From: Shigella phage ShigP1 | DNA length: 64,000 bases | Reading direction: 5' to 3' (one strand) | Sequence record: PQ818763 | Shown here: piece after piece, positions 3,451 through 5,442 of the stretch | How the letters are laid out: each line of letters opens with the position of its first letter | Numbering within the stretch: the stretch's first letter is position 1 | Notes under the pieces: generated by a model | Databases searched by the model: none | Seen by the model: the letters and a program-made list of their open reading frames with translations, nothing else | Told to the model about the DNA's origin: nothing | Made by a program: the position numbers and the translations under genes

Positions 3451-3596
3451 TGGTTACAGGTGTAGGATTCGAACCTACGCTCGGACTCCCTAGCCATCAC
3501 CAAAGGAATGCATCCAATGGGCATACGGTCATTCGACCACGGGCGACTGCTTTACCGTAGACTCTGCATTACTGAGTCCCATAAGCTATACCTGTA
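3451..3596 (-). ncRNA. tRNA-like stable RNA (about 146 nt), non-canonical
   Basis: 3' end is a canonical T-arm GTAGG-TTCGAAT-CCTAC plus acceptor ACCTGTA-A-CCA; the complementary TACAGGT lies 146 nt upstream; internal region does not fold as a standard tRNA. Confidence 0.3.
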
Positions 3597-4087
3597 ATTA
3601 AAAGGTTGTTCCACATTTACCCTAAAGTTATTGGGGAGTACACTAGCTCTGGGCCACGCTGTAGATATCGGCCTACCTTCCACAGCTAATCAGCTAATGT
3701 ACTCTCCTAATAGTTTATGAATAGGGGGAGGGGACGAATCCTCCCTTATCCTATTAATTAATATTGCATGTAAGACCTAACAATCGGTTGCCTTTGTAGG
3801 AATAAGCGTTATGCTAATCCAGCACTAAACTCCCGCCCCCTTAGTGGGCTGGGTTATTAAAGGGTAACGCCCTTATGGGCTAGTTACATGAATGTTAGTT
3901 TGATAGGAGATCTGAAGTCCTATCTCAAAGGACTCTCGTAAGAATCCTTCACGATATTACTTATTCATCTCTCGTCGGCTATCTCTCCAAGCCAACCAAG
4001 TGTAGGTTTTCAGTTCTTCAAAGTCTTCTGGAGAGAATAGATACTCTTTGAAGGTATCACCAAACCACTTTAAAAATTCTTCAGTCA

Positions 4088-4345
4088 TTAGTCCTCATAC
4101 TTTTTGTTAGGAAGGATGAAATCCCAAAGAGCAGCCCATGATACGAGTGCTATAAATAGTACAGCAATAATAGGCCACAAGAAAACCATAGCTGCTATCT
4201 TTCCGAGGTCTGGCTCACCATCCCAACCTCTGAAACACTGATTACCTTTAACATCTATAATCTTAATCAGAACACCTGATACTACTGATCCTATCAGATA
4301 GGCTATTAACATACTAACAAGACTGGTCACAAGGTTGATCTCCAC
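4088..4345 (-). CDS. small membrane protein (two predicted transmembrane helices)
   Basis: ORF track; hydrophobic stretches LVSMLIAYLIGSVVSGVLI and AAMVFLWPIIAVLFIALVSWAAL. Confidence 0.5.
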   Translation of the reverse strand: MEINLVTSLVSMLIAYLIGSVVSGVLIKIIDVKGNQCFRGWDGEPDLGKIAAMVFLWPIIAVLFIALVSWAALWDFILPNKKYED

Positions 4346-4496
4346 ATGTTTTACAGATCACTGGTGAGTAACTACAGGCAGGGTATACTGACACTCCATC
4401 AAATGTCTCACACCCACAGTCAGGGCATGTACCATTGGATTCCATGTCGTCGTCATCACACACTTCACCGCCACCATAACAGCTCATATGAACTCC

Positions 4497-4718
4497 TTAG
4501 TAAACTAAACCTACAGCCTTAGCATCAGGCTGAGGGACTACCTTTGCGCTAGGGCGATAACCATCCACTGAACCGTTCCAAAGATTGACACAGGTGATAT
4601 ATCCATCGTCTATGATGTCTGTTTTAATCCAGAAGTGTTTATCATGACCAAAAATACTTCCGTTTGGCAGCGTGGACAGCTCAACGGTTTTAAGTGACTG
4701 CTTAGAGTCTAGTTTCAT
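4497..4718 (-). CDS. small protein, paralog family 1
   Basis: ORF track; LPNGSIF and CVNLWNGS motifs. Confidence 0.5.
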   Translation of the reverse strand: MKLDSKQSLKTVELSTLPNGSIFGHDKHFWIKTDIIDDGYITCVNLWNGSVDGYRPSAKVVPQPDAKAVGLVY

Positions 4719-4727
4719 ATAAGTTCC

Positions 4728-4925
4728 TTAATATACCAAACCATGTAAAAGAAACACCCTCTTTGTAAGCTCTGCTTTAGCTCTGTAATAAGCCTTAGAA
4801 CCTAACAGGCGGCTCTTAACAAAGAACTTAATGTCATTGCTAACATCTTGTATTAAACGCTCCTGTACAGCTTCTGAGGAGCTATTAATTGAATCAATTA
4901 ACACCTTTGTGGATGTGTAATTCAT
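4728..4925 (-). CDS. hypothetical protein (65 aa)
   Basis: ORF track only. Confidence 0.4.
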   Translation of the reverse strand: MNYTSTKVLIDSINSSSEAVQERLIQDVSNDIKFFVKSRLLGSKAYYRAKAELTKRVFLLHGLVY

Positions 4926-4926
4926 A

Positions 4927-5226
4927 TCACCACTCCTTACCGGTTGTTGTTACAGAGCCACCACACCACAACGCTGTATCAATCACAACATTGTCTGGCG
5001 TAGACTTCTCTTCGTTGATAGAAGGGTTAGCATTAGAACAGGTTGCTCCGTTCCATCGCATATCAATTTCACCAGAAGGAATCTTCTCACCCTTATACCA
5101 GCGAGAAACACAAACACCTTCCACTGCTACTGCACACCATCCATCAGGACGGCTCTGTACGCAGCCTGTAAGGGCTATGCAGACAAGGAAGATACAGATT
5201 AAGGATATTACACCACCCCAACTCAT
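4927..5226 (-). CDS. putative lipoprotein (Cys-rich)
   Basis: N-terminal hydrophobic signal ending in lipobox-like LTGC; mature part Cys-rich. Confidence 0.5.
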   Translation of the reverse strand: MSWGGVISLICIFLVCIALTGCVQSRPDGWCAVAVEGVCVSRWYKGEKIPSGEIDMRWNGATCSNANPSINEEKSTPDNVVIDTALWCGGSVTTTGKEW

Positions 5227-5245
5227 AATTACCTCCTATTAGATT

Positions 5246-5340
5246 TGGTGGACTATCTGGAATCGAACCAGAAGCTCACTAAGAAAGTAATTCCCACTGT
5301 TATAAAAGCACTTGCCTCAACAGGGATACACTAACTCTGG
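5246..5340 (-). other. tRNA-like remnant (T-arm and acceptor 3' strand only)
   Basis: TCTGG-TTCGATT-CCAGA T-arm followed by TAGTCCA-C; no matching 5' acceptor strand within 100 nt. Confidence 0.25.
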
Positions 5341-5366
5341 TGCCGCACCCATACTAGCCCTAAATG

Positions 5367-5442
5367 TGGTGCGCCCTACAGGACTCGAACCTGTAACCAA
5401 TAGCTTAGAAGGCTACTGCTCTATCCATTGAGCTAAGAGCGC
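5367..5442 (-). tRNA. tRNA-Arg (anticodon UCU)
   Basis: Hand fold: acceptor GCGCTCT/AGGGCGC, D-arm GCTC-AATGGATA-GAGC, anticodon stem GTAGC/GCTAT with loop CTTCTAA, T-arm ACAGG-TTCGAGT-CCTGT, discriminator A, encoded CCA; 76 nt. Confidence 0.8.

Follow-up and report, generated by a model that had tools for sequence, protein, structure and literature searches.

Positions 3,451–5,442 of the Shigella phage ShigP1 sequence (record PQ818763; the whole 64,000-nucleotide (nt) stretch analyzed here is referred to as the window) make up a small RNA island within the early region of a kuravirus genome. The island comprises a tRNA-Arg(UCU) gene and three co-oriented non-coding RNA modules, designated A, B, and C. 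Modules A and B are two new sequence families of a known kind, the small tRNA-like RNAs of the T4 type. Both are probably genuine mimics of the top half of tRNA that do not decode and are cut out by the tRNA-processing machinery, analogous in position and build to the species 1 and species 2 RNAs of phage T4.

All features described below are located on the minus strand, in the same orientation as a run of small open reading frames (ORFs) of the early region, and five small ORFs lie between A and B in the window. The 2.3 kb around the island is 88–96% identical to sequences of the genus Kuravirus (Gordonclarkvirinae), the phiEco32/SU10-like coliphages. None of the public records examined carries an annotation for modules A, B, or C.

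Three T-arm units on one strand

The T-loop motif GGTTCGANTCC is found at positions 3465, 5259, and 5381, in each case on the minus strand. These three copies compare with 0.06 expected in 64 kb, and three or more copies were obtained in none of 100 shuffled sequences. A minihelix scan of the window for a T-arm combined with a complementary acceptor stem and a terminal ACCA retrieved only three units, namely the tRNA-Arg, B, and A. The occurrence of tRNA-like units beside the tRNA gene is confirmed as real and non-random.

The first of these units (5367–5442, minus strand) is a canonical tRNA-Arg of 76 nt with anticodon UCU and an encoded CCA. It had been folded by hand in an earlier sequence-only reading of this DNA, and ARAGORN places it at exactly the same coordinates (5442–5367), as the sole tRNA in the 64 kb. 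The Rfam tRNA model RF00005 matches it with 72.4 bits (E = 7e-14), and many relatives carry a tRNA-Arg annotation at this gene. AGA, a rare codon in E. coli, accounts for 23.5% of the arginine codons in window ORFs of at least 120 amino acids. This gene is a genuine and ordinary codon-supply tRNA. The same reading had proposed tRNA finders as a check on the window; ARAGORN at default settings and Rfam call the tRNA-Arg alone, and neither A nor B.

Element A and its sister form A′

Element A (3451–3596, minus strand) was delineated from its sequence, a consensus fold, and covariation. It contains a 7-bp (base pair) acceptor stem (UACAGGU/ACCUGUA), a T-arm (GUAGG-UUCGAAU-CCUAC), the discriminator A73, and CCA. 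The description given in the sequence-only reading, of a 146-nt unit with an intact T-arm, 7-bp acceptor pairing, and CCA, is accurate to the nucleotide. The interior of A is made up of helices foreign to tRNA, with a long arm at nucleotides 11–48 of the element (loop AGUAAUGCA) followed by hairpins at 53–76, 77–97, and 103–118. The start codon (3422) of an ORF for a D5-like regulator is located 28 nt past the CCA.

Only about 12 phage records carry A. Pattern scans of viral and metagenome contigs yielded six unique copies of A and nine of a sister form, A′; every copy of A has 146 nt and every copy of A′ 124 nt. Patterns of A/A′ gave no match in bacterial genome contigs. A and A′ have in common the acceptor frame, the T-arm, and ~25 nt preceding the T-arm, while their interiors are unrelated. 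The acceptor stem of A and A′ occurs in four versions (UACAGGU, UACAGAU, UACUGGU, and UACCAGU), each accompanied by an exactly complementary 3′ strand. Among the A-type copies, three pairs are changed on both sides (6:137 in the acceptor, 20:36 and 84:90 in hairpins), and pairing is retained in 98.8% of cells, compared with 24–44% when the partners are slid. Three copies of the element A family encode UCA in place of CCA.

A is also present, at 95% identity, in Schitoviridae (N4-like phages), namely in two Klebsiella phages, HS106 and GADU21, and in the IMG/VR contig L005. The similarity ends within ~4 nt of the termini of A. In HS106 and L005 the element is inserted in a tRNA array with the order Asn, Pro, Tyr, A, Ser, Gln, Ser, at 3 and 6 nt from its neighbors. 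A passes between phage families that are not related, as an exact unit, and fills a tRNA slot in their arrays.

Element B

Element B (5246–5360, minus strand; 115 nt) was defined from its sequence, the minihelix scan, and a constrained fold. It starts 6 nt past the tRNA-Arg. Its CCA is followed, at a distance of 19 nt, by the start codon (5226) of the next ORF. The acceptor stem has 6 bp, formed by GGGCUA (5360–5355) and UAGUCC and including G3·U70, and is followed by A73 and CCA; the T-arm is UCUGG-UUCGAUU-CCAGA. The sequence-only reading had assigned to the segment 5246–5340 a T-arm and the 3′ strand of an acceptor stem only. Both of these are present, but the 5′ strand at 5360–5355 had been missed, and the unit extends to 5360.

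With the acceptor stem and T-arm imposed, B folds at −32.3 kcal/mol. In this constrained fold the D position is occupied by a mini hairpin (GGUG-CGG-CACC) and the anticodon position by a ~57-nt arm capped by a tetraloop, which is followed by an 8-nt linker and the T-arm. The resulting layout, in which the anticodon arm is missing, the P2 position holds a long helix, and the D region is reduced, is a property of the constrained fold and not of the minimum free energy (MFE) structure; only two substitutions bear on the arm. B is found in about 29 kuravirus records, always at this locus. A comparison of four phages shows variation at only 3 of its 115 positions and complete divergence on either flank; pairing in the long arm is preserved by two of the three substitutions.

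B carries the full alanine identity set, G1–C72, G2–C71, G3·U70, A73, and CCA, of which G3·U70 and A73 are known alanine identity elements. Its acceptor stem and 3′ end (GGGCUA...UAGUCCACCA) are those of E. coli alaT (GGGGCUA...UAGCUCCACCA) less one G–C pair. The acceptor stems compare as GGGGCUA/UAGCUCC in alaT and GGGCUA/UAGUCC in B, the A73-CCA end is the same, and the T-loops are similar. In contrast to alaT, B has neither a D-arm of normal size nor an anticodon arm, and has a length of 115 nt.

Outside the T-arm, an alignment of B with A reveals nothing alike. ARAGORN reports neither a tRNA nor a tmRNA (transfer-messenger RNA) for B. The exact 3′-end pattern of B gave no match in IMG/VR, and its interior pattern gave none in bacterial genome contigs.

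The sequence CCAGA is present twice in B, at 5340–5336 and 5260–5256 (minus strand), and either of them is a possible partner for the 5′ strand of the T-stem. Because the two copies compete for the T-stem, the unconstrained optimum of B differs from the tRNA-like fold. This alternative, non-tRNA structure is 5.6 kcal/mol more stable in silico, and could reflect either a conformational switch or a limit of the energy model.

Element C and the upstream conserved block

The 360 nt on the 5′ side of A are non-coding and conserved. Element C (3628–3713, minus strand), identified with RNAalifold and by mapping of modules, is a structured RNA a short distance upstream of A. It consists of a stem of ~21–23 bp with an apical hairpin, G(U/A)GGA...UC(C/U)(A/U)C. 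The RNAalifold consensus of nine loci has 30 pairs, nine of which show compensatory changes. The motif CCAGAGYUAGUGUA is common to C and to the 5′ part of B, with a score that 5 of 300 shuffles also reach. The possibility that C represents a permuted tRNA-like domain was rejected by inspection, as it contains neither a T-loop nor CCA.

Further upstream, the block 3714–3956 (minus strand), recognized by BLAST against related loci and by sequence comparison, begins right past the stop codon of the preceding ORF and contains several hairpins (e.g., GGGAGGAUUCGUCCCCUCCC at ~3744–3725). It is common to other kuraviruses and, in part, to schitovirus contigs: BLAST gives 96% identity for phage XT32, 82% over 236 nt for contig L007, and partial matches for L008 and L009. 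The block may carry a promoter, although none was recognized in it; a scan of the region for sigma-70 promoters and terminators returned fewer sites than shuffled sequences. Schitovirus contigs that also contain C and part of the block are KP8, L007–L010, and L015–L028.

The modules exist as discrete units, with sharp conservation edges, fixed lengths, and covarying stems.

A and B as non-decoding tRNA-like RNAs

In the consensus fold of A and the constrained fold of B, the acceptor stem is stacked on the T-arm and ends in a discriminator A and CCA, while other helices replace the D and anticodon half of a tRNA. As they have no anticodon, A and B cannot decode. We propose that host tRNA-maturation enzymes would excise both elements from a polycistronic early transcript, with RNase P acting at the 5′ end followed by 3′ trimming and CCA repair. 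The excised molecules would then accumulate as stable small RNAs, as the species 1 and 2 RNAs of T4 do, and as molecular mimics they could engage proteins that read the acceptor/T-arm minihelix.

The comparison with T4 shows likenesses of arrangement and build. In its tRNA region, T4 likewise has a tRNA-Arg(UCU) with two RNAs of similar size to A and B right behind it on the same strand, in the order rnaD (119 nt), rnaC (139 nt). Toward its end, rnaC, whose internal arms are long, has the canonical T-arm CCGGG-UUCGAAU-CCCGG and then a strand of the acceptor type. In contrast to A and B, rnaD has no T-arm, the CCA of rnaC is not encoded, and the two T4 genes are adjacent, whereas A and B are apart. 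Direct alignment of A and B to rnaC and rnaD revealed no homology beyond the T-loop GTTCGAATCC. The suggestion in the sequence-only reading of a T4-type tRNA-like RNA is therefore borne out by position and architecture and not by sequence outside the T-loop; of the two explanations offered there for A, it is better than that of an intron. Reviews up to 2025 give the roles of rnaC and rnaD (the species 1 and species 2 RNAs) as unknown (PMC3014915, PMC12685909).

We also observe that in T4 rnaC (L001 3001–2909, minus strand) the sequence CGGAACG, which lies 46 nt into the RNA as counted from its annotated 5′ end, can pair over its full length, with a G·U at position 3, with CGUUUCG past the T-arm. 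This pairing would give a tRNA-like core of 93 nt preceded by a 5′ leader, and it conflicts with the MFE fold.

Several observations weigh against A and B being tRNA mimics of this kind. The z-scores of the folds are weak (−1.4 to −2.0), and the tRNA-like fold of B is not the MFE structure, which reaches −37.9 kcal/mol when no constraint is applied. The acceptor/T stack of B is short, with 11 bp rather than 12. Neither element is supported by the Rfam tRNA and tmRNA models at E ≤ 10; for B searched alone, the sole match is one of 7.5 bits on the T-arm. A has no alanine identity, as it carries C3–G70 (also present in A′) instead of G3·U70. The copy of A in XT32 has the T-loop UCCGAAC, with C in place of the near-universal U55. 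The known copies are 91–100% identical, so that recent transfer could explain much of the conservation and most helices are uninformative; only a few pairs covary. Finally, both elements are dispensable, B being absent from XT32 and A from SkaterBoy_Bas90.

Alternative explanations

Dispensability in some close relatives, the weak fold z-scores, and the silence of the tRNA finders would also be expected if A and B were functionless pseudo-tRNAs decaying from a former tRNA array. The degenerate T-loop in one copy and the presence of other odd tRNA look-alikes in the tRNA islands of related phages point in the same direction. Such decay is, however, difficult to combine with conservation whose limits coincide exactly with the predicted RNA ends, beyond which the sequences diverge, with strictly fixed lengths of 146, 124, and 115 nt, or with compensatory changes in the acceptor stem and internal hairpins. 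Moreover, A is kept as a precise unit after transfer between families, and the interiors are long ordered helices rather than eroded cloverleaves. We consider this explanation unlikely. Improbable to a similar degree is a purely local role, in which A and B would act mainly as signals for RNase P. Cleavage of the polycistronic early mRNA at these signals would define the 5′ ends and the expression of the genes downstream, and no role would fall to the RNA that is released. Each element is closely followed by a Shine–Dalgarno sequence and a start codon (ORF 5226 after B, the D5-like regulator ORF 3422 after A), and the stretches between the units yielded neither a promoter nor a terminator, in a scan that is not above chance either way. 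For such a signal a minihelix would suffice, yet the interiors of 80–110 nt are as conserved as the ends; in HS106 and L005, A is located between tRNAs and not ahead of an ORF, and SkaterBoy_Bas90 has the same regulator gene without A.

The remaining explanations are effectively excluded. An intron-containing tRNA had been suggested for A in the sequence-only reading, and for the window copy ARAGORN does return a tRNA-Val(UAC) carrying an intron of 49 nt when introns are allowed. This model fails in all close relatives (copies with 92–96% identity), its D-arm is poor, its third anticodon base falls in the most variable column (C/U/A/U), and it breaks a hairpin supported by covariation; in addition, bacterial group I introns in tRNA genes are much longer than 49 nt. 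The sequence AAU-GCA in A, followed by an in-frame UGA, suggests instead a miniature tmRNA whose tag frame would run for 12 codons from GCA to UGA (AESTVKQSPVVE). A has no G3·U70, however, the substitutions in the frame are all non-synonymous, and the Rfam tmRNA models give nothing. Phage-borne 3′ fragments of tRNA genes are a common signature of attP, and only a 3′ half of B had been seen in the sequence-only reading; A and B might on this basis be taken for fragments of host tRNA genes left by integration. Both acceptor strands are nevertheless present in A and in B, and Kuravirus and Schitoviridae are virulent phages. Neither element matches the E. coli genomes, where the interiors were searched for a host homolog or a long antisense target, or the representative genomes of 185,579 species, from which A and B are absent.

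A tmRNA-like tag template in schitoviruses and a possible link to ribosome rescue

In schitovirus contigs, C is followed by a segment of ~170 nt that is absent from the window, and then by A′. This segment matches the resume codon and tag region of the Rfam permuted/beta tmRNA models (RF04321) with 33 bits, below the gathering score of 47 bits, and with an E-value of 3.6e-5 for the local stretch. The tag frame runs from GCA to UAA and has 10 codons, with the variants ANDDVVLMAA, ANDDVILMAA, and ANEEAYLMVA. Its terminal Ala-Ala is kept by synonymous changes, and a conserved hairpin is located 3′ of the frame. ARAGORN finds the same tags at a threshold of 90% and misses them at default settings. 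The tag is not attached to any tRNA-like domain of the alanine type.

The tag template is unannotated in the N4-like contigs in which we observe it (L002 3806–3838, corresponding to KP8; L007 ~2226–2258; L006, L008–L010, L016, L017, L021–L023, L027, and L028). The GCA resume codon is preceded by AACAUAAAU, and A′ or a further module, D, comes directly next. A local alignment of the interior of A with the tag region of KP8 was not significant, as 17 of 300 shuffles reached an equal score. Joining the 3′ part of C and A′ into a single standard tmRNA, as ARAGORN does with relaxed settings, was discarded: the acceptor pairing of this model is imperfect, whereas the 5′ strands that belong to A and A′ themselves covary perfectly. 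The schitovirus islands resemble that of the window in the A/A′ frame, in C, and in the common non-coding block, and the KP8 'tRNA-OTHER' described below has the G3·U70 and A73 of B; they differ from it in that the window has neither the tag template nor module D.

B invites a comparison with the tRNA-like domain (TLD) of tmRNA. The two have in common G3·U70, A73, CCA, and a canonical T-arm; in its constrained fold, B would also share the lack of an anticodon arm and a long helix at the place of P2. B differs in its 6-bp acceptor stem and in being missed by the Rfam tmRNA models, and its D region, UAUGGGUGCGGCAC, resembles that of tmRNA, UCUGGAUUCGACGG, only loosely. The tmRNA literature describes 79 phage tmRNAs as well as forms without a tag coding sequence (PMC11915505, PMC4131195). 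Mycobacteriophage DS6A has a tmRNA described as 'little more than the TLD'; a molecule of this type is a strong inhibitor of tmRNA and perhaps acts by titration of SmpB (PMC11915505, PMC4131195). Like B, it is phage-encoded and has no tag frame (PMC4131195).

Because B combines the alanine identity set with, in its constrained fold, the layout of the tmRNA tRNA-like domain capped at P2, it is predicted to be a substrate of alanyl-tRNA synthetase (AlaRS) and, possibly, a competitor of tmRNA for SmpB. That B acts as a decoy for tmRNA/SmpB or AlaRS is put forward only as a hypothesis. The position of A′ directly past the tag template gives a hint of a role for the whole island in translation or ribosome rescue; A itself would be linked to trans-translation solely through the neighborhood of this sister form. 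A more far-reaching and unlikely proposal is that a modular phage system acting on trans-translation is made up of A/A′, B, C, and the tag template. In schitoviruses this system would take the form of a novel split or re-permuted tmRNA, in which the tag template precedes a self-closed tRNA-like piece of non-alanine type, and in kuraviruses that of tag-less tRNA-like decoys (A and the alanine-type B) that block or hijack SmpB-dependent rescue during infection. On this proposal, T4 rnaC and rnaD might be distant functional analogs.

Small tRNA-like RNAs in the tRNA regions of phages date back to the work on T4 in the 1970s. The A and B families belong to well-studied groups of therapeutic coliphages and have been missed by phage annotation pipelines. 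They offer handles that T4 never gave: exact module boundaries, covariation, transfer between families, a sister form beside a tag template, and a version with alanine identity. These comparative handles make specific and cheap experiments on A and B possible, which could connect RNAs of this class with ribosome rescue or with host defenses that target tRNA.

Other features of the islands

Module D is a conserved non-coding segment of ~70 nt with a T-arm-like hairpin (CCAGG-UGGAAUC-CCUGG), found in L003 1630–1700, L002 4122–4185, L007 2546–2612, L018, L020, and L025. It is always located just upstream of a tRNA-like unit; in most kuraviruses that bear A it stands between C and A, and it is deleted in the window.

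The tRNA islands of schitoviruses contain further tRNA look-alikes. The 'tRNA-OTHER' of KP8 (L002 3323–3397) is a 75-nt cloverleaf with an anticodon loop of 6 nt and the alanine identity (G1-G2-G3·U70, A73, and CCA). Another cloverleaf with a 6-nt anticodon loop is found beside tRNA-Ile(AAU), in L015 (10073–10145, minus strand), L016 (3534–3606, minus strand), and L023 (6059–6131). In HS106, the segment between tRNA-Asn and tRNA-Pro (L004 3766–3831) forms a T-arm-like hairpin within a CCCUCUG/CAGUAGAGGG stem and has a weak match to the Rfam family YrlA (Y RNA-like; 23 bits, E = 0.8). Matches to the pattern CCAGNGYTAGTGTAYYCY...T in the viral contigs L011–L014 are chance occurrences in coding sequence and were discarded.

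Among close relatives, modules are gained and lost at high frequency at this locus, and in some relatives an endonuclease gene is annotated here. HC-25922 carries B but no tRNA. XT32 lacks B and carries a tRNA, a different, 81-nt tRNA-Arg(UCU) call that contains an N (L003 73–153). The gene neighborhood in SkaterBoy_Bas90 contains no obvious RNA-handling partner protein. Downstream of its RNA island (L032 20151–27357) is a gene cluster for an amidoligase, a COOH–NH2 ligase, a glutamine amidotransferase, a RimK-like ATP-grasp protein, and a gamma-glutamyl cyclotransferase.

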